Part shown: piece by piece, positions 24,242-63,967 of the stretch | Layout: the number at the start of each line of letters is the position of its first letter | Numbering within the stretch: the first letter of the stretch is position 1 | Assembly: GCA_942493245.1 (NCBI GenBank) | Contig: OW818685.1 | Location: 4,770,973-4,834,972 of the forward strand | Length of the DNA: 64,000 nucleotides | Direction of reading: 5' to 3' | DNA from: an uncultured Candidatus Sumerlaeota bacterium | GTDB lineage: Bacteria; Sumerlaeota; Sumerlaeia; UBA8349 | The notes under the pieces: generated by a model | Databases searched by the model: none | Seen by the model: only the letters and a program-made list of their open reading frames with translations | Told to the model about the DNA's origin: nothing | Program-made: the position numbers and the translations under genes

Positions 24242-24680
24242 GGTGGACCACCTTTCCTGACCCGGCGACCGTCTTGAACGGCCCTCCCGGGTTCTTTGAA
24301 AAAAATACCCTCTGCGCCTCGATAGATCTTCCGTTCGGAAACGCAAAGACGATGAGTCGGGCAGGCGCACTTCGCCCGCCGGTTGAAAAAGCGCCCGGTC
24401 ATTCCACAACCAGACGCCAAAACCCGTCTGCAAAAGACGGGGGAAAACCAGACACACAGGGTGTTGACGCAACTGCGGGGAACCGGCCCGGGGAACACCC
24501 TCATCCGAGACTCGTTCGCGGGGGACAAAAGCATTCCCCCATCTCGCCCCGGAAAACCATTCCGACTTTTGATGACTGTGTACAGACCTCTAACGGTTCT
24601 TCTGTCACAAAAAAACCGCCCCATCCCCACGCACAAGAAATTTGGAAAACCCGCGCAAAACCACACTCTTCCACATATAT

Positions 24681-31974: not shown

Positions 31975-34479
31975 TCAAATAAACAGGTTCACCTGCCCTG
32001 CCGAAGCGGCGCCCAGGTACATGGCCACGCCTCCTTCCTCGATTCCTTCGATCAATTCCTCACGCTTGATCCCCATCAAATCCATGGACATGGAACAGAC
32101 CACCAGCCGCGCGCCGCCCTGACGGGCCGACTGAATCAATTCGCCCAGCGCGGGCACCTTCTTCTGGCGCATGATCCCCTTGATCATAGCCAGTCCCATT
32201 CCGGCCATCTGCATTTTCGACAACGCCAGTTTTTCCGGCCCGCGCGGCATCATCCACCCGAACATCTTCTCGACCAGATTCTTCTGTACCGGTGGCGGGT
32301 TGTCGCGCCGCAGGATATTGATTCCCCAGAACGTGAAGAACAGCGTCGGTTTCAGCCCCATCGCCACCGCGCCATTGGCAATGATAAACGCCGCCACCGC
32401 CCGGTCGAAATCGTTGCTGAACACCACAATCGTCATCCCCTGCTGGCCCGGCGTCTGAGGCGCCGGACAAACCGCCGGAACAGCCGAGGCGCCCGCCACC
32501 GCCTTTTTCACGATCGCCCGGTTTTCTCCAGCGCCCGGCGTCACCTCGACCAGCGTGTGGCCCGTCGTCCGGCACCACGCGGGCAAATCGTTGCAGAATG
32601 CCGAGTCGGATGTCAGAATCTCGACCGCATCTCCCACATTCACCCCATCCACCGCTTCCTTGAGCAGCAGAATGGGACCCGGACATTGCAGCCCCCGCGC
32701 ATCCACCCGTTTGGTCACTGTCGGAGCCGATGCGCCACCACGGGAGTTTCCACTCGGTGCCGACGTGAAGGATGCCCCCGATTTTGATCCCGTATCGTCG
32801 CGCAGCGGCCCGCGCGGCTGTTTCGCCGTCTGGTTCTTCGCCATCAGGTACGTCTTATATCCCCCCGTCAAATTCCGGCAGGCAAATCCCTTTTGCGCCA
32901 GAATCCGGCACGCCAGATACCCGCGCAACCCCACCTGGCAATACACCAGAACTTCCTTGTCACGCGGAATCTCGTCCAGCCGCCCGCGCAATTCGTCCAC
33001 CGGGATGTTGTTCGCTCCGGGAATCGCCCCAGCCGCCACCTCGGCGCCCGTGCGCACATCGAGCAACCATTCGTGTGGCTGCGGGTCAACCACATCCTCG
33101 ACATGACACACCCGCATGTCGCCTCGCAACACGTTAGCCGCCACGAAGGCCGCGAAATTGACCGGATCCTTCGCCGACCCGTAGGGCGGCGCATAGGACA
33201 ATTCCGTCTCCTCCAGATCGAAAACCGTCATCCCCGCCTGAATGGCGGTGGCGAATACATCAATCCGTTTGTCTATTCCCCTCGGTCCTACCGCTTGCGC
33301 CCCCAGCACCCGACCGTCCGACGGATCGAACAACAACTTCAGACTGATCTGCGTCGCACCGGGATAGTATCCGGCGTGGTGAGCCGGGTGAACATAAATC
33401 TTCTCATAGCACCGGCCCAGCCGCTTCAACACCTTTTCGCTCGACCCGGTCATGCCGATGGCCAGCCCGAACACCTTGCAGATCGCCGTGCCCTGGGTCC
33501 CCCGCCACGGGCGCGGACGCCCGAACAGGTGATCCGCCACCAGTCGCCCTTGCCGGTTCGCCGGACCCGCCAGCGGCAGCAGCGCCATCCCACCGCTCAT
33601 AAAGTCCCGCGTCTCGATCGCATCGCCCACCGCATAGATAGCCGGGTCGGACGTGCGCAGATACTCGTCCACCGCGATCCCGCCCAGCGCGCCAATCGTC
33701 AGCCCCGCCTCGCGCGCCAGTCGCACCTCGGGCTTGACCCCAATGGCGAGAACCGCCAGTCCGCAGGTCAGTGTGTCGCCCGTGCTGAGGTGAACTTCCA
33801 GGCCCGTCTCGGTTTCCTGAAACGCGGTCACCGAAGTCTCCAACCGCAGATCCACCCCGTGGCGTTGCAATTCATCATGGAGAGGCGCCACCATCTCGGC
33901 ATCCGCCGGTCCCATCACCTGAGCCGCCAGTTCGACCAAAGTCACCTTCAACCCCCGCTCGCAGAGCGCCTCAGCCATCTCCAGACCGATATACCCACCC
34001 CCGACCACCACGGCGGACCGTGTGGCCGATTCCCCCAGGATGGACAGAATCCCATCCATGTCCTCCATGTTGCGCAAGGTGCGCACGGAACCGCTTTCCA
34101 CGCCCGGAATCGGAGGACGCACGGGTTCCGCGCCCGGACTCAGCGCCAGCGCGTCATACGCCTCGGTGTACTCGCGCCCGGTCTCCCGGTCGCGCACCAC
34201 CACCTGACGGTTTTCACGATCAATTCGCAATACCTCGTGGCGCACCCGCACATCCAGGCAAAACACCTGCTTCAGCCGCTCGGGTGTCTGGACCAGCAAC
34301 CGATCACGCTGCTCAATCACCCCCCCGATGTGGTAGGGCAACCCACAGTTGGCGAATGAGACATACGGCCCGCGTTCGAGCAGCACAATCTCCGCCTCTT
34401 CGTTCAACCGCCGCGCCCGCGCGGCGCAAGACGCCCCGCCCGCCACTCCACCCACCACCACCAGCTTGCGTACAGACAT
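31975..34479 (-). CDS. CoA-disulfide reductase / NADH oxidase-family flavoprotein fused to rhodanese, TusA-like and DsrE-like domains
   Basis: FAD/NAD(P) Rossmann motifs (VVVGGVAGG, VVVGGGYIGLE). Redox Cys in SFANCGLPY. Rhodanese active-site YCQVGLRG. TusA CPGP motif (LQCPGPILLLKEAV). The C-terminal DsrE/DsrF-like domain begins MTIVVFSNDFDRAVAAFIIANGA. Confidence 0.88.
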   Translation of the reverse strand: MSVRKLVVVGGVAGGASCAARARRLNEEAEIVLLERGPYVSFANCGLPYHIGGVIEQRDRLLVQTPERLKQVFCLDVRVRHEVLRIDRENRQVVVRDRETGREYTEAYDALALSPGAEPVRPPIPGVESGSVRTLRNMEDMDGILSILGESATRSAVVVGGGYIGLEMAEALCERGLKVTLVELAAQVMGPADAEMVAPLHDELQRHGVDLRLETSVTAFQETETGLEVHLSTGDTLTCGLAVLAIGVKPEVRLAREAGLTIGALGGIAVDEYLRTSDPAIYAVGDAIETRDFMSGGMALLPLAGPANRQGRLVADHLFGRPRPWRGTQGTAICKVFGLAIGMTGSSEKVLKRLGRCYEKIYVHPAHHAGYYPGATQISLKLLFDPSDGRVLGAQAVGPRGIDKRIDVFATAIQAGMTVFDLEETELSYAPPYGSAKDPVNFAAFVAANVLRGDMRVCHVEDVVDPQPHEWLLDVRTGAEVAAGAIPGANNIPVDELRGRLDEIPRDKEVLVYCQVGLRGYLACRILAQKGFACRNLTGGYKTYLMAKNQTAKQPRGPLRDDTGSKSGASFTSAPSGNSRGGASAPTVTKRVDARGLQCPGPILLLKEAVDGVNVGDAVEILTSDSAFCNDLPAWCRTTGHTLVEVTPGAGENRAIVKKAVAGASAVPAVCPAPQTPGQQGMTIVVFSNDFDRAVAAFIIANGAVAMGLKPTLFFTFWGINILRRDNPPPVQKNLVEKMFGWMMPRGPEKLALSKMQMAGMGLAMIKGIMRQKKVPALGELIQSARQGGARLVVCSMSMDLMGIKREELIEGIEEGGVAMYLGAASAGQVNLFI

Positions 34480-51359: not shown

Positions 51360-51488
51360 GCCTTTTACAAAAGTAATTGGGTCTGCGGCGAAAAAGCGGG
51401 GAGATTTTTTGGCGAGAACGCATGTTCATTCACCTTTACCGCTCAGATCGCCTTTTTTCGACTTTTTCAGAGGTTCGATACTATTCAG

Positions 51489-51705
51489 GTGGCCCCGAAG
51501 GGGCCTCCCGATCAGTAGCCGTGGGTGACCGAAGGGAACCCACGGACAGGGAATTGCCTATTTCGCACCCTGAAGGGGTGCCCCAACGAAAGTGAAATCA
51601 ATGATTGGGGAACCCCTTCGGGGTTTGATTTATTATGGGGACATATTCCGTAGGTTCCCTTCGGTCACCTACGGCTACTGAAGGGGAATCCCTTCGGGAT
51701 TCAAC
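51489..51705. repeat. Cluster of six GC hairpins with CGAAGG/CCTTCG loops; two 32-nt units are inverted copies (MITE-like, family 4)
   Basis: U2 AGTAGCCGTGGGTGACCGAAGGGAACCCACGG (51514-51545) and U5 CCGTAGGTTCCCTTCGGTCACCTACGGCTACT (51648-51679) are reverse complements with 2 compensatory changes. Four further hairpins (GGCCCCGAAGGGGCC, GCACCCTGAAGGGGTGC, AACCCCTTCGGGGTT, GAATCCCTTCGGGATTC) lie between and around them. Confidence 0.55.
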
Positions 51706-53335: not shown

Positions 53336-54586
53336 ATGGAGATCCCCGGTTTGCCGTCTGAAGCATTACCCCGCAAACGTCCGGACAACGGAACGCGGTT
53401 CGGGCTTTATGTGCATGTGCCCTTCTGTCTGTCGAAATGTCCGTATTGCGACTTCGTTTCGTTTCCCCCCGAAATTCTGGATGATGCGGGACGGGACGTG
53501 TTAATGCGCGCTCTGGAGGCCGAACTGGCGCTGGCGTTGCGCTCGTTTCCCGAACTGCGCGGGCAGACGCTCGACACTGTGTATTTTGGCGGCGGAACCC
53601 CGTCGCTCCTCGAACCCGCCACAATCGGCCATCTGTTGGATCTGGCCCGCTCGGCGTTCCAGTGCGGCGATCTCGAAGTGACGATCGAGTGCAACCCTGT
53701 GACCGCGCAGGTGGAACGTCTGGCGGCTTTTCAGGCGGCGGGGGTCAACCGGATCAGTCTGGGAATTCAAAGTTTCGATCCTGAAACCCTGCAACGTCTG
53801 GGCCGCCGCCACTCCGCCGATGAAAGCCACGACGCCTGCCAGCGCGTGCGGGATCTGGGGTTTCGGTCGTGGGGCCTGGATCTGATATTCGGGGTACCGA
53901 CCCCTTCTGAGGATCGCCAGACACCGGGCCATCCGGTGCCGAATAAGGATGAGGAACTGGAGCGTTTCGCCCGCGACCTCGAAACCGCCATCTTGTGGCA
54001 ACCACCGCATCTGTCGGTCTATGGAATGACGCTCCATGAAGGAACGCCGTTTCACGAGCGGCATGCCGCGGGAAATCTGGTTCTGCCGGACGAGGAAACG
54101 CAGCGCGATCTATTTCTTCTGACCCGGCGGCGGTTGACCGAAGCGGGGTGGCGCCATTATGAGATTTCGAATTATGCCTGGCCGGGGCACGAAAGCCGCC
54201 ACAACACGCTTTACTGGACCGGGGGCGAATACCTGGGGCTGGGCGTGAGCGCGCATTCGTATTTCGCGGGTCAACGCCGGGCCAATCCGCCGGAGGTTGC
54301 GGTGTATCTCGGCCGGGTCCACGCGGGGTGTTACCCGGCGGAGGCCGAAGCGCCCCCGTGCGAGCGGTCGTTGCGGGGCGAGCGGATCATGCTGGCCCTG
54401 CGGCAGGTCGAGGGGGCGCTCCTGGCCGAGCTGGACCGTTCCCTGGGGTGCCATTTCCGCAAAACCTACGCGGTCGAACTCGCGCGCCTGTGTGAAAACG
54501 GTTTATTGTGGATGGACGAGAACCGCGTCGCGTTGACCGAAGAGGGGCTGCTGCTGTCCGACAGTGTATTTGAAGAATTCTTTTGA
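53336..54586 (+). CDS. hemW: Radical SAM heme chaperone HemW (HemN-like, oxygen-independent coproporphyrinogen oxidase family)
   Basis: YVHVPFCLSKCPYCDF (CxxxCxxC), GGGTPS, and a HemN C-terminal domain. Confidence 0.9.
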   Translation: MEIPGLPSEALPRKRPDNGTRFGLYVHVPFCLSKCPYCDFVSFPPEILDDAGRDVLMRALEAELALALRSFPELRGQTLDTVYFGGGTPSLLEPATIGHLLDLARSAFQCGDLEVTIECNPVTAQVERLAAFQAAGVNRISLGIQSFDPETLQRLGRRHSADESHDACQRVRDLGFRSWGLDLIFGVPTPSEDRQTPGHPVPNKDEELERFARDLETAILWQPPHLSVYGMTLHEGTPFHERHAAGNLVLPDEETQRDLFLLTRRRLTEAGWRHYEISNYAWPGHESRHNTLYWTGGEYLGLGVSAHSYFAGQRRANPPEVAVYLGRVHAGCYPAEAEAPPCERSLRGERIMLALRQVEGALLAELDRSLGCHFRKTYAVELARLCENGLLWMDENRVALTEEGLLLSDSVFEEFF

Positions 54587-54646
54587 TCCAACACGGAATG
54601 AGACGCGTGTTGATTTTTCAACGGGTTTTCCGGTCCCGGGTCTGCG

Positions 54647-54924
54647 GAACTCCTCATTGTCTATATGACCTAAAACCAAGATCTCCCATCTTCGGGCCTT
54701 CACACAGGGAGAAAGGCGGTTCCGAGGTGGCATGGGCGTCTCGCCCATGAAGGGTCTCCGGAACAAAAGACCCGAAATCCCCGGTCCTGCCGATGAGAAC
54801 GTCGGCAATTCACGGGCGGGACGCCCGTGCCACCTCCGGGCCATCTCCATTTTGCAGGACGAGGGACTTCCCTGTATCCCCCCTCGAACGACAACCTCAC
54901 AATTCGCCGGACAATGAGGAGTTC
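54647..54924. mobile_element. MITE-like element B, 278 bp, with perfect 15-bp TIRs GAACTCCTCATTGTC / GACAATGAGGAGTTC, flanked by a 14-bp direct repeat GTCCCGGGTCTGCG
   Basis: TIRs are at 54647-54661 and 54910-54924. The direct repeat GTCCCGGGTCTGCG lies at 54633-54646 and 54927-54940, a target-site-duplication-like arrangement. The internal cargo is the family-2 REP pair (54724-54836). The same TIR bounds element A at 2326-2577. Confidence 0.6.
54724..54836. repeat. Family-2 REP-like element (c)
   Basis: GAGGTGGCATGGGCGTCTCGCCCATGAA ... TTCACGGGCGGGACGCCCGTGCCACCTC. The terminal 28-bp arms are inverted repeats. Confidence 0.7.
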
Positions 54925-55021
54925 GTGTCCCGGGTCTGCGTATTTTCCAGTTTTCCCTTGCAATTGCCCGGCACGGTTCCCACAATCCCTTCATTATTGG
55001 GTCGGGAGGAAATGACCGAAA

Positions 55022-55786
55022 ATGGCCGGAAAGATTCAACTGCGTAAACGCTTGAGTGAAGACACGGAATACTACGATCAGGATGTGATCGAGAAGTATA
55101 TTGATTTTCTGGAGGAGAAAGGGCGGCTCGAACGAGTCGGAAACCTGCTCCTGGACGCCCAGGCGTTGACGCGCCCCTTCGCCTGCGATACGGCGCAGTG
55201 CGTGACCTGTGGCAAGGGGGGACGCGGACGCAAGAAACTCAGTTCCTGCTGCGAGGTTTATACGCCGCGCCTTTCGACCCGCGAGCGCGAGTGCCTCGAC
55301 GCGATTCTCCCCGCGCTCTACGAGCGATTCCCCCGTCTGGAAAAGGCGATCGAGAAGGCGGGCGGGTATTACGAGTGGGACGAAGGGTACGACCGCATGG
55401 TGAACAAGAACGGCAACGGCCTGTGCGTCTTCATGACGCCGGACACCGACGAGTTCGGGTTCCATGCGTGCAAGATCCACGCCTGGTGTCTTGAGACCGG
55501 TAAATCGCCTTTCGACTACAAACCCTCGGCGTGCGTGATGTTTCCGCTCTTTCTGCTCGAGACGGGCCGCGACGATGGCACCGTCCTGCTTTCGGTTCAC
55601 AGCAAGGAAATCATGACGATGGGCGAAACGGACGACGGGAGCTATCAGGAGGTCGGGTGCCTGAAAACCTCCAGGTTGGATGCTCCGCCCGCCTATATCG
55701 AAATGCGGTCCACCATCGAGAATATGTTCGGCGCCCGGGTGTGGCAACAGATGGATCGGGCTCTGAAAGCGCGTGTCGAGAAATAA
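55022..55786 (+). CDS. YkgJ/UPF0153-family Cys-rich (putative Fe-S or Zn-binding) protein
   Basis: CDTAQCVTCGKGG...SSCC and LCVFMTPDTDEFGFHACKIHAWCLETGKSPFDYKPSACVMFPL match the CxxCxxCC / CPFL...C.IY..RP..CR.FP family pattern. Confidence 0.75.
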   Translation: MAGKIQLRKRLSEDTEYYDQDVIEKYIDFLEEKGRLERVGNLLLDAQALTRPFACDTAQCVTCGKGGRGRKKLSSCCEVYTPRLSTRERECLDAILPALYERFPRLEKAIEKAGGYYEWDEGYDRMVNKNGNGLCVFMTPDTDEFGFHACKIHAWCLETGKSPFDYKPSACVMFPLFLLETGRDDGTVLLSVHSKEIMTMGETDDGSYQEVGCLKTSRLDAPPAYIEMRSTIENMFGARVWQQMDRALKARVEK

Positions 55787-55861
55787 TCGGTGGCTCGATC
55801 GCGCCGTCCCGGCCCGGGAGGCCGGGTTTTCCGTTCGCTCCAGAAATTGAAGGATTTGCCG

Positions 55862-57808
55862 ATGGATAGCATGCCCCCGGAGGCCGTCGCCCCGTGTGTT
55901 GTGACTCGACGCCCCTCGAGCGGCGGAACGGGGCGTTTTTTTCTGCTGATATTCGGGTTGGCGCTTCTGGTGCGGGTGGCTGGGTTGGACGTGTTTCCCC
56001 CGGGGCTGTGGATGGACGAAGGGCTGAAGGGCATGGACGCGTGGCGCACCTGGCACGCAACGCGCTACGGTCCCGCCACCGGTCCCCTCTGGATCTATCC
56101 GGACATTTTTCCCCGCGAGCCGTTGTTTGTCTGGATTCAGAGCGTGGCGGTCACGCTCGGCGGGCCACGGGTGATCGTCCTGCGGTTGACGTCGGTGTTG
56201 ATCGGCTGTCTGGCTTGTCTGGCTTTTTTCGGTCTGGTGCGCTCGCTGGAACGGGAACGCGGCGCGCGGTTCGCGCTTGTGGCGGCGTTTGTGCTCTGTA
56301 CACTGCACTGGCATGCGCATTTCAGCCGATTGATCTTCCGGACCAATCTGGTCCCCCTCGTGGCGTGCTTGCTGGTGTGGGCGCTGTCCGCCGCCCGGCA
56401 TCGAGCGAACGCAGACCGCACAGGCGTGTTGCCATGGATCGCAGCCGGACTGTTCCTGGGTTTGGGATTTTATACGTATCTTTCCTGGTATTTCTTCCTG
56501 CCCGTGGCCGCCGTGTGGTTCTGGGCGCTGGCGGGAGGGGGTTCGCAAGCCCAGGAAGGTGACATGGGTGTTCCCCGAGGTGGCACGGGCGTCCCGCCCA
56601 TGAACGCAGTTGAAAATCATTCTCAGTCCCAGGAGGAACCCCTCACGGGCGAGACGCCCGTGCCACCTCAAACGGTCCCTCCTCTGGTTGTACAACCTCC
56701 GTTCGTACCTCCTCGGAAGAGGACAACTTTCTGGACCGCGCTGGCCGGAGTGTTGATCGGGGCGGTTCTGATCGTCTCGCCCCTGGTGGCGCATTATCTG
56801 TCCTCGCCCGGCGATCTGGTGGGGCGTCCGCAGGCGGTTTCGCCCCTTCAGAAGGGGTGGAAGGCCGGGTTGCAGCTCATGGGGCGCAATGCGCTGGATG
56901 TGGCCCTGATGTTCTCCTTCCGGGGCGACCATGTGGGGAAACACAACATTCCGGTCGAGACCGCCGAGGGGGAACGCCCCTATGGCAAGCCGGTTTTCGA
57001 TCTTGTGTGGTCCTTGTTCTTCTACGCGGGGTTACTCCGGGCGGGGTGGGAGGTCGTGCGCCGGGGCAAACAGTGCCGGCAATCTCTTGCCTGGTTCGCC
57101 TGGTTGGGGTGCATGTCGTTGCCGTCGGTGGTCACGCAGACCGATTCGGTCAACATGCTGCGCAATCTGGGAGTGACGCCTGCCGTGGCGTATTTTGTCG
57201 CGCTTGGCTGGTGGTGGGGGTATGAATCGGTTCAGCGCCTGGGCGCGGCGGTATCGTCCGAGGCGCTCGCGAGACGGAAACGGCTGCTGGGGGCGCTGCT
57301 GATCGGCCTGCTGGTCTATGGGGCCGGGTATCAGGTCTATAAGCTCTGGTACCTGCACCCGCAGGCGCCGGGGATGCAGGACCAGTTCAATTTCTACCAC
57401 GTGGCGCTGGCGGAGATGTGCGAAATCCCGCAGGACGCCCCTCAGACTCCCTCCGTGACGTTTGTACCCACGGACTACTACGAGCACCGGACTTTCGGGT
57501 TTCTGACGATCGAGCGCGGCGACATCCTGCCGCTCGACCCCGTGGCGCTTCTGTCGCGCCCGCTTGCGGGCAAGGCCCGTGTGGACCACCGGGTGATCTG
57601 TACGGACTACAATCCGCGCAATCTCAAGAGTTTGCGGACGCTTTTTCCCGACGCGTGGGTTGAGTCGAACACAATTCTGGTGCAGCCGCCCGGTGGCGGT
57701 CCCGAACAACCGGTGGCGCTGATGCTCCACATCCCCGCTGACAGTCTGTTGCCGCGCGCCGAGGCCAAACGCCAGGCGGCGCGGTTGCAGTTGAATACGC
57801 GGTACTGA
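55862..57808 (+). CDS. GT-C fold membrane glycosyltransferase, PMT_2/ArnT-like (GT39/GT83-like), carrying an in-frame REP insertion
   Basis: Multi-TM N-terminus with a DE-containing first periplasmic loop (GLWMDEGLKGMDAWRTW) and a soluble C-terminal domain. I prefer ATG 55862 (GAAGGA 7 nt upstream). The repeat at 56578-56669 is translated in frame as ...GDMGVPRGGTGVPPMNAVENHSQSQEEPLTGETPVPPQ... Confidence 0.78.
   Translation: MDSMPPEAVAPCVVTRRPSSGGTGRFFLLIFGLALLVRVAGLDVFPPGLWMDEGLKGMDAWRTWHATRYGPATGPLWIYPDIFPREPLFVWIQSVAVTLGGPRVIVLRLTSVLIGCLACLAFFGLVRSLERERGARFALVAAFVLCTLHWHAHFSRLIFRTNLVPLVACLLVWALSAARHRANADRTGVLPWIAAGLFLGLGFYTYLSWYFFLPVAAVWFWALAGGGSQAQEGDMGVPRGGTGVPPMNAVENHSQSQEEPLTGETPVPPQTVPPLVVQPPFVPPRKRTTFWTALAGVLIGAVLIVSPLVAHYLSSPGDLVGRPQAVSPLQKGWKAGLQLMGRNALDVALMFSFRGDHVGKHNIPVETAEGERPYGKPVFDLVWSLFFYAGLLRAGWEVVRRGKQCRQSLAWFAWLGCMSLPSVVTQTDSVNMLRNLGVTPAVAYFVALGWWWGYESVQRLGAAVSSEALARRKRLLGALLIGLLVYGAGYQVYKLWYLHPQAPGMQDQFNFYHVALAEMCEIPQDAPQTPSVTFVPTDYYEHRTFGFLTIERGDILPLDPVALLSRPLAGKARVDHRVICTDYNPRNLKSLRTLFPDAWVESNTILVQPPGGGPEQPVALMLHIPADSLLPRAEAKRQAARLQLNTRY
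56578..56669. repeat. Family-2 REP-like element (d), intragenic and in frame within the GT39-like gene
   Basis: GAGGTGGCACGGGCGTCCCGCCCATGAA ... TCACGGGCGAGACGCCCGTGCCACCTC. The arms are 25/27 inverted repeats. The length is 92 bp, which is not a multiple of 3, so either the local frame is preserved only together with adjacent sequence, or the predicted protein skips the element. Confidence 0.65.
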
Positions 57809-57899
57809 GCCTTCCGGCTCGAAACCCGCGCGATAAGGCCATCTCGCGGCACTCGCGGGGCCTGTTCCATCTTCTCCGCTGAAGGAAGGTCTTTCACCC

Positions 57900-59003
57900 A
57901 TGTATCATCCCGCGCCGAAATGCGCCTTTTTCCGCTCTTCTCTTTCTTTTCTGTTGAGCGCAATTCTGCTCTCGATATGCGCCTGTGCGTCGCCGAAAAG
58001 CGCTCCCGCCTCCCCGATAGTCGTTCAGGACGAGCGCGTCCCGCAGGACCGCAGCGTACTCTATGAACAGGTCACCCAGGCCTGTGTCGAGATTCTGTCA
58101 GAGGGGCATCTGGCCGGAAGCGGATGGTTCTGCTCACCCGACGGGCTGGTGATGACGGCGGGGCACGTCATGGAAAAGCCGGATATGGACCTGGAAGTGA
58201 TTGCGGCGCCGGACAAGCGGTACAAGGCGCATCTGGTGGCGCTGGACCGGGGACACGATCTGGCGTTGCTCCAGGTGGAGGACGCGAAAGGGCCGTTCTC
58301 CACCCTGCCGCTGGCCCAAAGCATGCCCGCCGTGGGCGAGGACGCGTTTGTCTTTGGCATGCCGATCTACCGCCATGCGGTCCTGTTGACCGGGCAACCG
58401 GCGCGTCAGGGAACCACGTTCGAGTGGCTCGGGCCGGAAACGTCCTACGCCGAGATCGTCCACTTTCACGGGGCTTCGCCGCAAGGCACGTCGGGCGGAC
58501 CGTGGATCAATCCTCAAGGAGAAGTGATCGGGCTGCAATCTTCGATGATGTCGCTCAACGACGCCCCGATGGGGATCGCCTTCGTCGCGCCGCTGGGAGC
58601 CATCCGGCGCCTGATCGAAACCCGTCGGCACGCCGAGACGCCCCATCTGGGGTGCGCGTTCGATGAACTCTGGGAGCACGACCCCGGTTTCATCCGCTCG
58701 TTCCCGGCAGGCACCGAGGGGTTGGTGGTGCGCATGCCCGCGAAGGACAGTCCAGCGGCCAGGGCGGACCTGCGAGAACTCGACTGCATCACCGCCGTGG
58801 ATGGCAAAGCGGTGCGCTACCGGGATCAGGTGGTGGGCGCCATGCGGGCCAAAAAACCGGGCGAGACGATCCGGTTCTCCGTTCTGCGCAAAGGGGAGGC
58901 CGCCCGAACGGTCGAAGTCGTCCTGAGTTGCCTGGAAAAAGACTGGCAGGCGGGGAAGACACAGAGGACGGAACCGGAAGCCAAGGAAGAAGCGGAAAAG
59001 TAA
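57900..59003 (+). CDS. Trypsin-like serine protease (S1C/HtrA-like) lipoprotein with C-terminal PDZ domain
   Basis: Lipobox LLSICAC. Catalytic triad context MTAGHV, DLALLQV, GTSGGP. A C-terminal PDZ-like region. GAAGGAAGG RBS. Confidence 0.85.
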   Translation: MYHPAPKCAFFRSSLSFLLSAILLSICACASPKSAPASPIVVQDERVPQDRSVLYEQVTQACVEILSEGHLAGSGWFCSPDGLVMTAGHVMEKPDMDLEVIAAPDKRYKAHLVALDRGHDLALLQVEDAKGPFSTLPLAQSMPAVGEDAFVFGMPIYRHAVLLTGQPARQGTTFEWLGPETSYAEIVHFHGASPQGTSGGPWINPQGEVIGLQSSMMSLNDAPMGIAFVAPLGAIRRLIETRRHAETPHLGCAFDELWEHDPGFIRSFPAGTEGLVVRMPAKDSPAARADLRELDCITAVDGKAVRYRDQVVGAMRAKKPGETIRFSVLRKGEAARTVEVVLSCLEKDWQAGKTQRTEPEAKEEAEK

Positions 59004-59202
59004 ACCAAGCCCAGAAAAGAAGAACAGGGAGAACCGCAGCCCTCTCCCCCGTCAAACCGGTCGAGCGGATTTCCCGCATCTGGCCTTTCTTCTGACTCTC
59101 GCCCCAAGGCATGCGGATTGACCAGAGCGCCTCATACTGATTGCTTGTCCATAAACCTGAGAACCGCGGTTGAACCTGAATACCGCAGTTGAACGCCTGT
59201 CG

Positions 59203-59242
59203 TCCGGTTTTCTTTCAGGCGGGCGGGACGCCCGCCCTCCCA
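59203..59242 (+). repeat. Family-3 short repeat copy
   Basis: TCCGGTTTTCTTTCAGGCGGGCGGGACGCCCGCCCTCCCAG, with a perfect GGGCGGG-ACG-CCCGCCC hairpin. Confidence 0.6.
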
Positions 59243-59476
59243 GAAAGCCCACCCAAAGGGAGAACGGATTGCCCTCTTTTTTCCCCTCTTTACATGGCGT
59301 CAAGACCCGTTTCTTCGTTTCAACTGCTGTCTTTGAGATAAATAGTTATCACTTTTCTCAAAACGATCATCGTGGCAGCCAGCACCGCCAACCTCGGATA
59401 AGAGCGGGTTTTTGACCGGTCTCCTGCCGCAAGAGATGTTGAAGAGACCCTGCCCCATCCCTTGTGAGCGATTCCC

Positions 59477-60220
59477 TTACGCCTTCTCGATCTCGCTGCG
59501 CCAGGCGGCGACTTCGGCCCGGATAGCGCGCAGCACGGCGAGCGACTCGTTGCCCAGAAGGGGGTGCGCTCCGGCGACGGGAGAAACATCGCTGAGTCCC
59601 CGATCGTCATGGTCGCCCAGGCCCGATGTCCCGAGATGGCGCAGGTAGGTCATAATCAGGTCGCGCAGTTCGGTGGGACGTCCGATGCCGCGAAACACGG
59701 CCTGATTCAGCGCGCCGCTTTCGTAGGGATTCTCCGGGTTGGGGGCCGAGCCCCGCCCCGCCGTGTCCACCACCAGGTCGTACAGTCCGAAATACCGCTG
59801 GACCGGTCCCTGCTCGATGCGCATGTTCTGGATGTTCTCGAACGTCAGGGTCACCTCCCGCACTTCGATCACCCCCTCGCGGATGCGCAAGCTGCGGTCG
59901 GTGATGAGGTAGAAACGCATCTCGTAATCCAGGCGCGTTACGACGTAGAAAAACACGGTCTTCCCCACCGCAAAAAACAGAATGGCCACCGCGGCCAGGA
60001 GACCGAGCCAGGGATTCGCCACCAACAAGACCAGCGCAACAACCGCTTCGGCAATCAGGACGGGTACCAACCCCATCCACATCATCAGCATCCGGTAGCG
60101 CAGATAGGCGGGCGCGGCGCGGAACACCTGCACGGAATCGTGCGACCCGGCGGGTGGGTCCGGCGGCTCGTGCGGAGAACGCAGCAGGTCGAGAACAATG
60201 CCTTTCAACTGTTCATACAT
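59477..60220 (-). CDS. Membrane-flanked bacterial PH-domain protein (bPH_2 / YdbS-like)
   Basis: Two TM helices, then YLITDRSLRIREGVIEVREVTLTFENIQNMRIEQGPVQRYFGLYDLVVDTAG. I prefer ATG 60220 (MYEQLKG...) with GGGGAG upstream. Confidence 0.78.
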   Translation of the reverse strand: MYEQLKGIVLDLLRSPHEPPDPPAGSHDSVQVFRAAPAYLRYRMLMMWMGLVPVLIAEAVVALVLLVANPWLGLLAAVAILFFAVGKTVFFYVVTRLDYEMRFYLITDRSLRIREGVIEVREVTLTFENIQNMRIEQGPVQRYFGLYDLVVDTAGRGSAPNPENPYESGALNQAVFRGIGRPTELRDLIMTYLRHLGTSGLGDHDDRGLSDVSPVAGAHPLLGNESLAVLRAIRAEVAAWRSEIEKA

Positions 60221-60242
60221 GGGTTCCGACTCCCCACTTTCA

Positions 60243-61754
60243 TCAAGGTTGCGTTCGAGGCACAAAGATCGTCTTGGGGCGCGTCTTTCCCCCGCTGACG
60301 GGCCAGAACACATCGGGCCGGGGAAAAACCGGCCCGGCTTCCTCATAATACTGATCCCATCCATGCGGAAGAGAATGTCCATCAAACAGAATTTCGGCAA
60401 AACGTTGTTCTCGAACGGCCTGATTCAAACTTTCCCAGACACAGACCGGAACCTGTTCTTTCCCGCCGGCAAGAACGCGAAATGGAGAATAGTAGGTAGC
60501 CCGAATCGGTTTCCCTGCCATGGGACCAAGATGGCCGTGGAAGGCGACCCAAACATCGCCTTCCACGTGTTTCAGACGTTCAACCAAGGCCTCCCCCGCC
60601 TCACGATCCGCCCGGGACGGTACTCGGATGCGCGGGTCGTAGGCAACCAGGGCAAATTGGACAAGAAGCAAAAAATAAAACGCCATCTGGATTTTGGGGG
60701 ACTGGAACCTTTGGGCCGCTTTCTGGAACAGGATTCCCACTAAAAGCGCAAACAGGGCACAGTCGGGCATGAGGGAATTTTCAGCGCCCCCTTCCGACCA
60801 TTGGCCAATCCAGGACGCAATAAGAAATCCGCCTCCCAGAGTCGGCAGGAAGAGTTGCTCCCGCCAGGTTTTCCAGTTCCGTATCCCCAGATACAATCCC
60901 CCGAGCGCGGCAATGGAAACAATCGGCATCTTGATTGCGACATGACGTGTCCAGAAATCAAGCCCGTGGCCGATGCGTAACGAATGCTCAAACAGATAAC
61001 CCCACATATACGGACAGAACCACCCCTCTTGCCAGACATCCATCGCGAAGGACCCTCCGACCACGAGTAAGCCAAAGGGGAGCAAGAGCCATCCGGCACG
61101 ACGGGGATGGAGGACGGAGACGATGCACAAAACAGGAAGAGAGGCGGGTAACGCCGTTTGTTTCGTGAAGACCGCCAGAGCCAGAAGAATTCCTGTCGAT
61201 ACGTCCGCCAGGGGAGTCTTTCCGAAACGAAGCAGGTACATCGCCGACAAAAGAAGAAAAAGTAGCAACGAGTCCACCCGCGCCACATCGAACCACCCGC
61301 CGCAAACTCCGTAGGAGGCCGCATAGAAGCCCGCGGAAAGAAACGCGAAATAACGGGAGTCCGTTTCCCGTCGGACATAGGCAAAAAGTATCCCGAGACA
61401 CCCCACGGACGCAACCACGGAAGCCAGGCGCAGCACCCACAGATTAAACCCCAGGCACTGGGCAAGACCAGCCGAAAGATAGTAATACAGGGGAGGATAA
61501 ATACTCGGAGAATAATCCAGAGACGGTTTTGCGTAGAGGGGCAATCCTTGCAGGATTCGAGAAACGTGATCCGCCAGAACCCCCTCGAAAATCTCCAGTT
61601 CGAACGGGTACCCGATCCGCAACAGAACCAGCCCGAAATAGAGAAGAAGCGAACCTGTCGACGCAACCAGGAGCGCCCCGCGCATCAGGCGAACGCCCGG
61701 GGTGGGGAGGGTGGGCTTGTGTCCCGGCAGGACCGCCGAAGTTTTGGAATGCAT
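60243..61754 (-). CDS. Polytopic membrane protein with C-terminal periplasmic domain (putative GT-C-like glycosyltransferase), paralog B
   Basis: 503 aa with about 11 hydrophobic segments. Paralogous to the upstream gene: shared LLRIGYPFELE(I/T)FEG..ADHVSRILQG, YPPL(Y/F)YYLSAGLA, WFDVARVDSL, and GAENSLMPDCALFALL(V/M)G. Its ATG overlaps the upstream stop (TGATG). Confidence 0.75.
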   Translation of the reverse strand: MHSKTSAVLPGHKPTLPTPGVRLMRGALLVASTGSLLLYFGLVLLRIGYPFELEIFEGVLADHVSRILQGLPLYAKPSLDYSPSIYPPLYYYLSAGLAQCLGFNLWVLRLASVVASVGCLGILFAYVRRETDSRYFAFLSAGFYAASYGVCGGWFDVARVDSLLLFLLLSAMYLLRFGKTPLADVSTGILLALAVFTKQTALPASLPVLCIVSVLHPRRAGWLLLPFGLLVVGGSFAMDVWQEGWFCPYMWGYLFEHSLRIGHGLDFWTRHVAIKMPIVSIAALGGLYLGIRNWKTWREQLFLPTLGGGFLIASWIGQWSEGGAENSLMPDCALFALLVGILFQKAAQRFQSPKIQMAFYFLLLVQFALVAYDPRIRVPSRADREAGEALVERLKHVEGDVWVAFHGHLGPMAGKPIRATYYSPFRVLAGGKEQVPVCVWESLNQAVREQRFAEILFDGHSLPHGWDQYYEEAGPVFPRPDVFWPVSGGKTRPKTIFVPRTQP

Positions 61755-63328
61755 CAGGCTTGTCCCCCCGATTCCGTCTGGGCCGCCGGTTGCGGCAGGG
61801 ATGGCTCGGTTTCGTTGCGGGGCCGGGGGACAAAGATTGCCTTGGGCCGCGTTTTGTAACCGGTCACCGGCCAGAATACGTCGCGCCGTTCAAAGACCGG
61901 CCCGGCGTCCTGATAGTAGGCGTCCCATCCCTCGGGCAGGGAGTGCGCGTCGAACAGAATTGCGGCGAAGCGTTGCTCGCGGACGGCGCGATCCAGACTT
62001 CCCGGAAACGATGCCGGTTTGGGTTCTCCCAGGGAAGACATCGAAATCAGAGGTTGATAATAGATCGCCCGAATCGGTTTCCCGGCCATCGGTCCGAGAT
62101 GACCGTGAAAGGCAACCCACACGTCGCCCTCGATTCCCTTCAACCGCTCGATCAGCGCTTCACCCGCCTCGCGGTCCGCCCGCGAAGGAACCAGTGGACG
62201 CGGATCATAGACCACCAGACCGAATTGAATCAGAACCAGGGCGTACAGGAACGTCTGCTTCCGGGGCGAGGTTGTCTGTTCCAATCCTTTCTGGAGCAAA
62301 ACCCCCATCAGAAGCGCGAAGAGCGCGCAACTGGGCAGGAGAGCGTTTTCGGCGCCCCCGACTGACCAGCGACCGATCCAGGCCGTTGCCAGAAGCCCCA
62401 GCGCCAGCGCGGGCAGAAAGAGCCGATCGCGCCAGTTTGTCTGGCCAGAAAAACCTCTCCAAAGCCCCAGCAGCGCGGCAATAGAAATGAGAGGCATCTG
62501 CCGGAAAACATGCCGGACCCAGAAATCCGCTCCCTGCCCCGGCCGCAAAGCGTGTTGAGCCAGATGTTCCAGAACATACGTCCGATACCACCCGCCCTCA
62601 TGCAAACGGTCCAGGAGAAAGGAACCTCCCCCCAGAAGCAGTAAAAAGGGAACCAGACACCAGACCGCCCGGCGGGGCCGGGCTAACGTGACGGCGCACA
62701 GGGCGGGTAGAACCGCTGAAAACGCAGTCTGTTTGGTAAACGCCGCCAGAACCAGTAAGGCTCCCGCCAGGAGACCACCCCCTGGCGTTTTCTGGAAACG
62801 AAGCCCATATACACCGGCCAACAGAAAAAACAGGTACAGAGAATCCACACGCGCAACATCGAACCACCCCACGCAAATTCCATAGGTGGCCGCGTAGAAA
62901 CCCGCGGAGAGAAACCCACAAAAGCGAGAACCGGTCTCGCGCCGGACATACCCATAGAGAATCCCCAGACAGCCCACCGAGGCGAAGACGGAAACCAACC
63001 GCAAGACCCACAAGTTCACCCCAAAGACCCACGCCAACCCCGCCGAGAGATAATAGAAAAGGGGCGGGTAGATGTTCGAGACAAAATCCACCGACGGGGC
63101 CACATAGATGGATTTTCCCTGGAGAATCCGGGACACATGATCCGCCGTCAACCCCTCGAACGTTTCCAGTTCGAACGGGTAGCCGATCCGCAACAGGACG
63201 AGAATTGCATACAGCAGAATCGAGCCGCCCGCCGCCACCCCCACTGCTTTACGCAGCAGACCGGACATTGCCGACGACGACCACCCGGAGCGCCACGGCG
63301 CGAGGGATGGGGTTTGTTCCGGATTCAT
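61754..63328 (-). CDS. Polytopic membrane protein with C-terminal periplasmic domain (putative GT-C-like glycosyltransferase), paralog A
   Basis: 524 aa and collinear with paralog B, including the C-terminal EGDVWVAFHGHLGPMAGKPIRA(I/T)YY...FDxHSLPxGWDxYYxxAGPVF motif. GGAAGGG RBS upstream of ATG 63328. Confidence 0.75.
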   Translation of the reverse strand: MNPEQTPSLAPWRSGWSSSAMSGLLRKAVGVAAGGSILLYAILVLLRIGYPFELETFEGLTADHVSRILQGKSIYVAPSVDFVSNIYPPLFYYLSAGLAWVFGVNLWVLRLVSVFASVGCLGILYGYVRRETGSRFCGFLSAGFYAATYGICVGWFDVARVDSLYLFFLLAGVYGLRFQKTPGGGLLAGALLVLAAFTKQTAFSAVLPALCAVTLARPRRAVWCLVPFLLLLGGGSFLLDRLHEGGWYRTYVLEHLAQHALRPGQGADFWVRHVFRQMPLISIAALLGLWRGFSGQTNWRDRLFLPALALGLLATAWIGRWSVGGAENALLPSCALFALLMGVLLQKGLEQTTSPRKQTFLYALVLIQFGLVVYDPRPLVPSRADREAGEALIERLKGIEGDVWVAFHGHLGPMAGKPIRAIYYQPLISMSSLGEPKPASFPGSLDRAVREQRFAAILFDAHSLPEGWDAYYQDAGPVFERRDVFWPVTGYKTRPKAIFVPRPRNETEPSLPQPAAQTESGGQA

Positions 63329-63367
63329 CGAACGCGCCCTTCCGCTTTTTTCGGGAAGTTGCCCATT

Positions 63368-63967
63368 TCAGACCTCGCTTTTTTCAACCGAATCGGTCTG
63401 TGGGGCCGGTTGGGAATTCCGGGAGGCGGACTGAAGGCGGCGCAGAGCGGCCAGGTCGGTGTGGATGGCGCGCAGGAGTTCCAGCGCTTCTCCGTCCGAT
63501 TGCGCGACGGACGGGGCGGCCGTGCCGGAGACCGCCGTCTCGGACGCATCGAGACGCCGTCCCCGCATTTTTCCATAGAAGAAATCGCGCAGGGCCTCGT
63601 ACTCCTCGATCCCCTGGATACTCATTTCGGCTCCGGCGGCGCCCGAGGCGGTCTGCACCTGGAGCGTGGCCAGTCCGAACCAGCGTTCCAGAATGCCCCG
63701 TGTGAGGTGGATATCCTGAATCCGCTTGTAGGTCAGGTTGATTTCCTTGCGGAACAGGATGCCCCAGCTCATGCTCACCCCTTCGGCATCGAAGCGGTAG
63801 CGCAGGGTGTGGTACTTGAAAAACATGGGAGGGAAAACCAGAGGAAATAACACATTGGCCAGGAGACTGCGGATGAAATAATAGTACAACAGTTTCTGTG
63901 AAGGCCGTGTGATCGAAAAAATACGCGCCTCGGAGGGAGCGTGGCGGGTCGTGGCGGGATTCAACAT
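63368..63967 (-). CDS. Membrane-flanked bacterial PH-domain protein (bPH_2 / YdbS-like), second copy
   Basis: YRFDAEGVSMSWGILFRKEINLTYKRIQDIHLTRGILERWFGLATLQVQTASG. ATG 63967 has GGAGAGGTGG upstream. Confidence 0.72.
   Translation of the reverse strand: MLNPATTRHAPSEARIFSITRPSQKLLYYYFIRSLLANVLFPLVFPPMFFKYHTLRYRFDAEGVSMSWGILFRKEINLTYKRIQDIHLTRGILERWFGLATLQVQTASGAAGAEMSIQGIEEYEALRDFFYGKMRGRRLDASETAVSGTAAPSVAQSDGEALELLRAIHTDLAALRRLQSASRNSQPAPQTDSVEKSEV

Follow-up and report, generated by a model that had tools for sequence, protein, structure and literature searches.

The stretch between positions 55022 and 63967 of the window, the 64,000 nucleotides of DNA from an uncultured Sumerlaeota bacterium analyzed here, raises the question of whether its seven genes form one envelope glycosylation system, as the initial annotation had supposed. 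All seven open reading frames listed there were confirmed, coordinates included, and the region holds three separable pieces, not one conserved system.

Gene content and layout of the locus

Three genes, referred to here as the trio, lie on the plus strand. The first (55022–55786) encodes a Cys-rich cytoplasmic protein of 254 amino acids that is DUF3109/Rv0495c-like. Its score for PF11307, 31.1 bits, falls just under the gathering score of 33.5, and PF11307 is carried by members of its 90% cluster in precomputed Pfam data. The YkgJ family (PF03692), to which this protein had been likened, gave no match at E ≤ 0.1, the sole match being DUF3109/PF11307. The second gene (55790–57808) encodes GT672, a GT-C glycosyltransferase of 672 amino acids as an ORF, with a PMT_2 score of 29.3 bits. 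Because the database version of GT672 has 648 amino acids, covering 96% of the ORF, the true start is probably M25 at 55862. GT672 contains a D-E motif, LWMDEG, read from the sequence after the first transmembrane helix (TM1), and a Pro-rich insert at approximately residues 245–310. Its close homologues number only about 28, and all of those named to a taxon belong to Sumerlaeota; compared with GTc2, described below, GT672 shows just 31% identity across 124 residues. The third gene (57900–59003) encodes an HtrA/DegS-like serine protease of 367 amino acids with a signal peptide and one PDZ domain (Trypsin_2 78.7 bits, PDZ_2 46 bits). By eye, its N terminus, LLSICAC followed by AS, fits a lipobox, with Cys29 as the probable lipobox cysteine, in line with the S1C/PDZ lipoprotein protease first proposed. 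Its best NCBIfam matches are DegP/HhoA/DegS, and at 110 bits for TIGR02037 it scores far under the equivalog cut-off and is not the equivalog of any named member.

The trio is kept in four loci of related genomes (L089–L092), on contigs other than those of the bPH cassette from the same samples, and is not retained at 47–51% identity. It is grouped only among close relatives and never adjoins the bPH cassette in them. The trio is thus a unit of its own, restricted to close relatives, and only in this genome does it lie next to the cassette, in convergent orientation, which contradicts the earlier view of the 9 kb as a single neighbourhood system.

The cassette occupies the minus strand and comprises two bacterial PH-domain (bPH) genes with two GT-C genes between them. 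The first visible gene of this operon, bPH_A (63368–63967, 199 amino acids), is YdbS-like and starts 33 nt from the window end. It is separated by 39 nt from GTc2 (61754–63328, 524 amino acids), the upstream one of two tandem paralogs encoding ArnT-like GT-C proteins. The stop codon of GTc2 overlaps the start codon of the downstream paralog, GTc1 (60243–61754, 503 amino acids), in a TGATG at 61752–61756 that was read directly in the sequence (gcctgatgcattcc) as described by the initial annotation and points to translational coupling. A further 22 nt separate GTc1 from the last gene, bPH_B (59477–60220, 247 amino acids). The two bPH genes are therefore co-oriented but have 3.1 kb of GT-C genes, GTc2 and GTc1, between them. 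Neither a promoter nor a terminator could be identified convincingly; co-expression of bPH_A, GTc2, GTc1, and bPH_B is plausible here.

GT-C fold and conserved residues of the tandem paralogs

GTc1 and GTc2 share 64% identity over 481 amino acids. Both, as well as GT672, exceed the PMT_2 (PF13231) gathering cut-off of 26.1 bits, with 35.2 bits for GTc1 and 36.1 bits for GTc2. The proposal that the three large proteins are GT-C enzymes was thereby borne out, and the paralogs, described at first as not assignable to a family from sequence, could be placed in the PMT_2-type GT-C group. The PMT_2 matches of the paralogs are modest, 35–36 bits over only ~145 residues, and sequence comparison detects no solved structure for the GTc family; both points would agree with the paralogs being transporters, or polytopic proteins of another kind, whose likeness to PMT_2 is one of composition. 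We consider that reading highly improbable, as a high-confidence AlphaFold model of GTc2 (pLDDT 92.1, pTM 0.92) fits ArnT over an alignment of more than 500 columns. In a Foldseek comparison of this model with the PDB, the best 33 matches are all GT-C-fold membrane proteins, consisting of glycosyltransferases and the GT-C-like GPI transamidase subunit, with ArnT first and STT3, ALG9, AglB, PglB, Pmt4, AftA, and Emb also among the leading matches. Transporters, a confident assignment to which had been named at the outset as the finding that would speak against a GT-C identity, appear only at a probability below 0.15. The fold was tested on the GTc2 model; GTc1 is assigned by its 64% identity to GTc2 and GT672 by profile.

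The conserved residues also argue against a transporter. As in GT-C enzymes, the loop right behind TM1 carries the conserved acidic residues of the GTc family: among 99 homologues, E55 and E58 never vary and E53 reaches at least 90% conservation, and neither paralog lacks any of the three. For GTc2, the residues E53, E55, E58, D157, R160, D162, and K199 are 90–100% conserved, and the 99 homologues and both paralogs share the conserved motifs YPFELExxEG, WFDVARVDS, and TKQ. Of the 56 positions conserved in the family, GTc1 retains 54, every charged one among them. GTc1, GTc2, and GT672 are PMT_2-type GT-C glycosyltransferases and not transporters, and GTc1 and GTc2 both retain the conserved residues and are probably active.

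The GTc family, with members of ~500 amino acids, has 366 relatives in the scanned species-representative genomes, spread over many phyla, which identifies a large uncharacterised ArnT-like GT-C family that extends into mostly uncultured phyla. At the 79 GTc-family loci outside Sumerlaeota, an HMM search found no bPH gene (0/79).

The bPH pair and its interruption in one Sumerlaeota clade

As the initial annotation had it, a bPH-domain protein caps each end of the paralog pair, both passing the bPH_2 (PF03703) profile test with 64.6 bits for bPH_A and 58.4 bits for bPH_B. bPH_A consists of a short hydrophobic hairpin and a PH domain, its hydrophobic segment (residues 25–50) lying under the hydropathy threshold used. 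bPH_B has a conserved N-terminal segment, a transmembrane hairpin, a cytoplasmic PH domain, and a C-terminal helix; its AlphaFold model (pLDDT 82.4) shows helices at residues 37–68 and 70–100 followed by a beta sandwich, and the best Foldseek matches of the model are the bacterial PH domains 3dcx, 3hsa, and 3b77. The two proteins are only ~30% identical, and this within the PH domain alone.

The bPH_B family has at least 543 homologues, annotated by JGI as YdbS or YdbT. At all 68 assessable metagenomic loci of the 80 containing a bPH_B homologue (the upstream sequence of the remaining 12 is shorter than 260 nt), a bPH_A-like gene lies directly upstream on the same strand, usually overlapping bPH_B by 4–8 nt, mostly by 4 or 8 nt. 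The bPH_A of the window is 50–58% identical to the gene found directly upstream at these 68 loci. A GTc-family gene was found at none of the 80 loci, and the uninterrupted pair is also found in other Sumerlaeia. An overlapping bPH_A-bPH_B pair is the ancestral state, and such single-PH pairs constitute a very consistent two-gene module outside Firmicutes. In several species, YdbS- and YdbT-like genes have been described as pairs that share an orientation (PMC8657885).

The bPH pair is interrupted by GT-C genes only in one shallow Sumerlaeota clade, and the content between the two halves differs in all four configurations. The window has GT-GT; L088 has bPH_A-GT-X623-GT-bPH_B; L001 has GT-X'(opposite strand)-DUF6798-X594-GT-bPH_B; and L173 and L174 have intact bPH_A and bPH_B genes around a decayed, internally deleted, chimeric GT remnant of 193 or 213 amino acids. 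At least one intact GT-C gene adjoins each bPH gene in three of the four configurations, and the spacers of the intact configurations are short and conserved (39 nt and ~22 nt). The predicted conservation of the bPH-GT-GT-bPH order thus holds in part: it recurs in close relatives, as bPH_A...GT...GT...bPH_B in L088 and as GT-bPH_B in L001, L002, and L008, and is absent from the 79 GT and 80 bPH loci. As all split-pair loci trace to a single clade, the comparative evidence amounts to one evolutionary event and is only weakly informative either way. The findings as a whole point to an ordinary gene-order novelty in one Sumerlaeota clade that is made of known kinds of parts.

The initial annotation had taken the bPH proteins for accessory subunits of the transferases. 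In such a model bPH_A and bPH_B would be dedicated accessory or regulatory subunits of a four-protein membrane glycosylation machine, in which cytoplasmic PH rings scaffold or gate the transferases. The four genes share a strand, are tightly spaced, and include a TGATG overlap, which would agree with this, as would the recurrence of their order in close relatives and the accumulation of further polytopic genes at the same spot. However, the two modules are common apart, the overlapping bPH pair is ancestral and adjacent in 68 of 68 cases, the arrangement has a single phylogenetic origin, and L173 and L174, close relatives, retain intact bPH genes around a deleted GT. Moreover, the PHb domains of related families of membrane proteins have a predicted intracellular location and may assemble into oligomeric rings (PMC2817789); by analogy with ArnT, the GT-C active site would instead face the periplasm. 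On these grounds dedicated subunits appear quite unlikely.

Alternatively, the gap between the bPH genes could be a tolerated insertion site, with GT-C, X, and DUF6798 genes hitch-hiking neutrally, gained and lost by chance and without a tie to the bPH pair. The four differing inserts, among them the opposite-strand gene of L001 and the deleted remnant of L173/L174, would be consistent with this, as would the lack of an insert of any kind in the 68 uninterrupted pairs elsewhere. Against it, neither window paralog is decayed and the two retain almost every residue conserved in the family, the GTc genes are translationally coupled with short spacers, and all known cargo consists of large polytopic membrane proteins and not of random genes. 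This repeated gain of polytopic membrane genes (X, DUF6798) suggests that the position is not functionally neutral, and we regard purely neutral insertion as having only a minor chance of being correct.

The system first proposed is split into independent parts, and the explanation that we find reasonably probable is that a GT-C gene was inserted into the bPH pair and duplicated, the products being GT-C enzymes with a predicted lipid-linked donor, for which the bPH proteins are not obligate partners. In one shallow Sumerlaeota lineage, a GT-C gene would have entered a widespread YdbS/YdbT-like bPH pair, landing between two genes that normally overlap, and at some point would have been duplicated in tandem to give GTc2 and GTc1. 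By analogy with solved GT-C enzymes, GTc1 and GTc2 would each transfer a sugar from a polyprenyl-phosphate carrier to an envelope acceptor at the outer face of the inner membrane. The conserved residues suggest that the chemistry would be carried out by E53/E55/E58 just after TM1 together with D157/R160/D162/K199. The two paralogs may differ in specificity or act as a heterodimer. Co-transcription with the bPH pair in this lineage is expected from the layout, and through it the GTc enzymes would probably share the regulation of the pair. Three observations run counter to this explanation: the intact GT-C genes that adjoin the bPH genes at short, conserved distances in three of the four configurations, the recurrent acquisition of X and DUF6798 genes at this spot, and the lack of a GT2 partner and a flippase in the window.

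A stronger connection, to which we attach a low probability, would be a functional tie, within this lineage, between the GT-C enzymes and the bPH pair. In that case the PH proteins might sense or organise the membrane, for example in envelope stress, and control a variable polytopic set (GTc1/GTc2, X, DUF6798), with GTc1 and GTc2 forming a Pmt1-Pmt2-like heterodimer. If true, this would be the first link of the widespread, functionally obscure YdbS/YdbT-like pairs to envelope glycosylation and would offer a handle on the role of bacterial PH-domain membrane pairs.

Comparison with known systems

The best match of the GTc2 model is ArnT (GT83), the undecaprenyl-phosphate-L-Ara4N:lipid A transferase (PDB ID 5EZM and 5F15; Foldseek E 1e-6, TM 0.56). 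The proteins are of similar size (~500–550 amino acids), match PMT_2, combine a polytopic N-terminal module with a small C-terminal soluble domain, and conserve acidic as well as basic residues within their first outer loops. In contrast, sequence identity between ArnT and GTc2 is ~12%, and the GTc family is also found in Chloroflexota and many other phyla; lipid A modification would not be expected in Chloroflexota and many of the phyla that carry GTc genes. As to ArnT orthologues, GTc1, GTc2, and GT672 have no NCBIfam ArnT match, and the window contains no arn genes, including arnBCADEF-type neighbours.

The protein O-mannosyltransferases (GT39; yeast Pmt1-Pmt2, PDB ID 6P25, and Pmt4) are likewise of the GT-C fold and belong to the same Pfam clan (PMT_2/PMT), and Pmt1-Pmt2, a heterodimer of paralogous GT-C proteins, is a possible analogy for tandem GTc1/GTc2. 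Pmt structures rank under ArnT, OST, and ALG enzymes in the GTc2 fold search. For PMT (PF02366), GTc2 reaches 20.0 bits against a cut-off of 22.7, GTc1 and GT672 have no match, and there is no MIR domain; with ArnT as the best structural match, the mannosylation-type activity suggested initially is not borne out, and nothing points to a protein acceptor.

The window protease resembles HtrA/DegS (S1C) in pairing a Trypsin_2 domain that carries the His/Asp/Ser motifs with just one PDZ domain, but differs in scoring far under the equivalog cut-offs, in being a predicted lipoprotein, and in a linkage to GT672 that does not extend beyond close relatives.

YdbS/YdbT of Bacillus subtilis and DdE/DdF of Enterococcus faecalis (bPH_2, COG3402/COG3428) are co-oriented, adjacent genes for PHb2 membrane proteins with the small one upstream (PMC8657885), and bPH_A has a YdbS-like size and layout. 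Unlike YdbT, with three PH domains and six transmembrane helices (PMC8657885), bPH_B has one PH domain and two transmembrane helices. The window organism is not a Firmicute and no bacteriocin genes are nearby; the window pair is 3.1 kb apart, whereas bPH_A/bPH_B homologues elsewhere overlap in the manner of an operon pair.

In Gtr-type three-component systems (GtrA flippase, GtrB GT2, GtrC GT-C), a GT-C enzyme on the outer face uses a polyprenyl-phosphate sugar, as GTc1 and GTc2 may do by analogy. These systems differ in having GT2 and GtrA-like genes beside the GT-C gene; no GT2 donor synthase or GtrA-like/flippase gene lies near the cassette within the 64-kb window, and the sequence upstream of bPH_A is outside the window. 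A small GT2 gene occurs within 4 kb at 6 of the 79 GTc-family loci in other phyla, a weak association. In the relative L173, GT2 and LAB_N protein genes are found on the strand of bPH_A, ~5 kb upstream of it, and the functional unit may thus reach past the window end.

Gene content of the region and its surroundings

The genes described in the initial annotation were all recovered in an ORF list combined with a Pfam scan. The plus strand carries a trio consisting of a Cys-rich protein of 254 aa (55022-55786), the polytopic 672-aa protein GT672 (55790-57808) and a 367-aa protease (57900-59003) that combines Trypsin_2 and PDZ_2 domains with a signal peptide and the lipobox-like sequence LLSICAC|AS. 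As the database version of GT672 comprises 648 aa, its likely start is 55862. The minus-strand cassette, which converges on the trio, contains bPH_A (63967-63368), GTc2 (63328-61754), GTc1 (61754-60243) and bPH_B (60220-59477). It is packed like an operon, with 39 nt between bPH_A and GTc2, a TGATG overlap of one base between GTc2 and GTc1, and 22 nt between GTc1 and bPH_B. The two paralogs align over 481 residues with 64% identity, and bPH_A and bPH_B share ~30% identity that is confined to the PH domain. The YkgJ label given earlier to the Cys-rich protein was rejected, since no YkgJ family profile matched; instead, DUF3109/PF11307 ("Rv0495c" in newer Pfam) scored slightly under threshold, and the cluster mates of the protein carry Sumerlaeota annotation. 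A promoter and terminator scan gave counts that were not convincingly over the shuffled expectation, with no useful signal in the convergent gap (59004-59476), and an Rfam search of 54-64 kb gave no match. An 813-aa ORF on the minus strand (54503-56944) overlaps the genes for the Cys-rich protein and GT672 in antisense; it is rich in Arg, Pro, Gly and His, has no coding signal and is a shadow ORF of the kind typical of high-GC DNA, not a gene.

Three further features of the window were observed. A single 6489-aa ORF (5003-24472, minus strand) contains four Calx-beta domains, CARDB, CarboxypepD_reg, WD40 beta-propellers and Big_10, and probably encodes a giant surface or adhesin-type protein. 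An 834-aa fusion of pyridine-nucleotide-disulphide oxidoreductase, rhodanese, TusA and DsrE-like domains (31975-34479, minus strand) is a predicted sulfur-trafficking multidomain protein, unrelated to the cassette. The intergenic element at 51487-51705 (~200 nt) is built from nested palindromes whose stems end in GAAGG/CTTCGG loops. Inside it lies an inverted repeat of 26-35 nt (51515-51540 and 51678-51653), and its computed fold has -139 kcal/mol (z = -10.95). It has no tRNA or Rfam match and no second copy in the window. A segment of L173, a locus from a relative, matches it over 187 nt with 79% identity (L173:15603-15781) and lies in a different gene context. The element may be MITE-/REP-like or a structured RNA.

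Fold and family of the large membrane proteins

GT672, GTc1 and GTc2 all score above the PMT_2 gathering threshold. The earlier view that the paralog family could not be assigned from sequence therefore does not hold as stated, a PMT_2 assignment being possible by Pfam, and the proposed GT-C nature of the three proteins is borne out. We gathered 109 homologues of GTc2, and an alignment of 99 sequences (both window paralogs and 97 of these) was used for an AlphaFold model of GTc2 (pLDDT 92.1, pTM 0.92). In a Foldseek comparison of this model with the PDB, ArnT (5ezm/5f15) was the top match (E 1e-6, TM 0.56), followed by STT3, ALG9, AglB, ALG12, PglB, Pmt4, AftA and Emb. The alternative that the paralogs are transporters was rejected, because GT-C folds lead this list and transporters appear in it with probabilities <0.15 throughout. 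Despite the fold that GTc2 has in common with ArnT, no ArnT NCBIfam model matched, and ArnT orthology was rejected; PMT/GT39 membership was likewise rejected, as PF02366 remained sub-threshold. When the PDB was searched by sequence, with GTc2 or with its profile, chance matches alone came back and no solved relative was found. GTc1 and GTc2 are thus ArnT-like in fold, and neither ArnT nor GT39 PMTs.

Residues E55, E58, P78, Y87, R110, D157, D162 and K199 are invariant in the 99-sequence alignment, which shows the family motifs YPFELEWxEG (immediately following TM1), WFDVARVDS and TKQ. Conservation reaches at least 85% of the non-clade sequences at 56 positions; of these, GTc2 kept 52 and GTc1 kept 54, including every charged one in both, and therefore both copies look catalytically competent. 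GT672 is a separate PMT_2 lineage, with 31% identity to GTc2 in a 124-aa alignment; of its ~28 close homologues found, all those with a taxon name are Sumerlaeota.

A scan of one genome per species identified 366 relatives of the GTc family in many phyla, including Ignavibacteria, Zixibacteria, WOR-3, Calditrichota, Polyangia, Eisenbacteria, Chloroflexota and Acidobacteriota, the closest genome match being a Candidatus Sumerlaeota MAG at 71% identity. The neighbours that recur form a weak and mixed set, with a polytopic protein of unknown kind at 10 of 79 loci and GT2, sulfatase-family and GT4 genes at 6 of 79 each. Such neighbours fit a glycan-related role and define no pathway. Same-strand adjacent paralog pairs were also seen in Zixibacteria (L010:8440-11488) and Eisenbacteria (L083:8205-11413), so duplication is recurrent within the family, and these pairs hint at repeated duplication or at a role as heterodimers.

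The bPH pair and the inserted GT-C genes

The normal arrangement of the bPH genes was determined from 80 metagenomic loci retrieved with the profile of the bPH_B family, which has at least 543 homologues. A shorter second bPH gene lies directly upstream on the same strand in 68 of these, mostly with an overlap of 4 or 8 nt; the other 12 have <260 nt of upstream sequence and were left out as not assessable. All 68 partners are bPH_A orthologues (best 50-58% identity; median bit score 167 against bPH_A and 42 against bPH_B), and the uninterrupted pair is also found in other Sumerlaeia (L175/L176). The two genes capping the cassette are therefore halves of one conserved, translationally coupled pair, split by GT-C genes in this clade alone. 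Around the pair only antisense shadow ORFs recur, real genes being common to at most 9 of the 80 loci.

The bPH_B model (pLDDT 82.4) begins with a conserved N-terminal segment, continues through a TM hairpin (37-68 and 70-100) into a beta sandwich that has a capping helix, and ends in a C-terminal helix. Structural matches of the sandwich are the bacterial PH domains 3dcx, 3hsa and 3b77. Residues 1-36, ahead of the hairpin, carry the strongly conserved motif MYExLK...PPEPPAGSHxSVQVFRA. A short beta strand at residues 31-34 of the model might be the beta-1 suggested to be missing from related membrane-anchored PHb families (PMC2817789).

The initial annotation treated the bPH proteins as accessory subunits of the transferases. 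This is not supported by the distribution of either family: a bPH_B relative occurs in 1 of the best 80 of the 366 GT loci, a Sumerlaeota locus, an HMM search found no bPH gene in the other 79, three contexts inspected singly were likewise without one, and none of the 80 bPH_B loci contains the GT family. The bPH-GT-GT-bPH order was thus encountered elsewhere only as variants in one Sumerlaeota clade. Four states were seen between the bPH genes within this clade: GTc2-GTc1 in the window; GT506, X623 and GT492 at locus L088; a GTc2 orthologue, X' (opposite strand), a DUF6798 protein, X594 and GT505 at L001/L002/L008; and a 193/213-aa GT remnant ORF in two independent assemblies (L173:9447-10028 and L174:373-1014). 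Over its first 131 residues the remnant shares 72% identity with GTc2 residues 21-151, and its tail corresponds to the C-terminal end of the GT. In the DNA alignment, L173 follows the window from 63937 to 62844 and resumes at 60346-59475, which corresponds to loss of the interior of a tandem pair, so that the 5' part of the first paralog now runs into the 3' part of the last. The bPH genes around this remnant are intact (79% and 82% identical to those in the window), and L173 and L088 share the upstream synteny of HtrA-479, a DUF4332-like protein and bPH_A. In neighbour-joining trees all Sumerlaeota GT copies form one clade, within which full-length and C-terminal alignments disagree on paralog order, with low bootstrap support. 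The states seen and the shared synteny fit one insertion in an ancestor, with duplication, gain and loss occurring later. The GT-C and bPH modules are distributed independently, the insertion being a derived state of a single clade.

The X family, which sits between GT paralogs in relatives and is absent from the window, comprises polytopic proteins of ~570-620 aa with an ERPFWDG motif conserved after TM1 and a C-terminal soluble domain (L088:5274-7145, L001:4859-6643 and L001:844-2544, minus strand). It was rejected as GT-C (profile-profile probability 1.3% against the GT family) and had no Pfam match; PDB sequence searches with X and the DUF6798 protein gave no match.

The trio was also found apart from the cassette. 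It recurs in four related loci (L089-L092), followed there by unrelated genes and not by the bPH cassette. Two of these loci share their samples with cassette contigs (L089 with L088, L091 with L002), and a GT672 homologue at 47-51% identity stands alone. The trio is therefore a separate unit with shallow conservation, and its position next to the cassette is specific to this genome. Of the initial interpretation, the GT-C assignment stands and the single 9-kb system with bPH accessory subunits does not.

Proposed function and relation to known systems

By analogy with ArnT, GTc1 and GTc2 would use polyprenyl-phosphate sugars at the periplasmic face. Their C-terminal domain would be periplasmic, given a basic loop (SPRKQ) before the last helix, the same arrangement as in ArnT. 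A universal lipid A acceptor seems unlikely, since Chloroflexota and further phyla also have members of the family. No GT2 or flippase gene was found within the window. Relatives have genes for a small GT2, a membrane protein with a LAB_N domain and an HtrA-like protease of 479 aa (L173:2485-5658, L088:3-323) upstream of the DUF4332-like gene and bPH_A, all on one strand, the L173 GT2 and LAB_N genes being ~5 kb upstream of bPH_A; the equivalent region of the source genome, beyond the window end, could hold donor-synthesis genes. The four cassette genes would be co-transcribed, in which case the transferases would follow whatever regulation the bPH pair has. Functional coupling of the bPH pair to its GT-C cargo is improbable in our judgment: the case for it comes from a single evolutionary event, and in one natural variant the enzyme has been lost while both bPH genes are kept.

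PHb domains of related membrane families are predicted to be intracellular, possibly forming rings (PMC2817789). Functional data on such bPH proteins come from Firmicutes only and comprise membership of the sigma-W regulon, by title the subject of PMC3498285, a claimed association with antibiotic resistance and export of leaderless bacteriocins (PMC8657885). The bPH pair resembles YdbS/YdbT, whose genes are also paired and co-oriented in several species (PMC8657885), with the difference that YdbT has three PH domains and bPH_B one. All parts of the region are of known kinds, and what is new is the lineage-specific gene order and an uncharacterised, widespread ArnT-like family.
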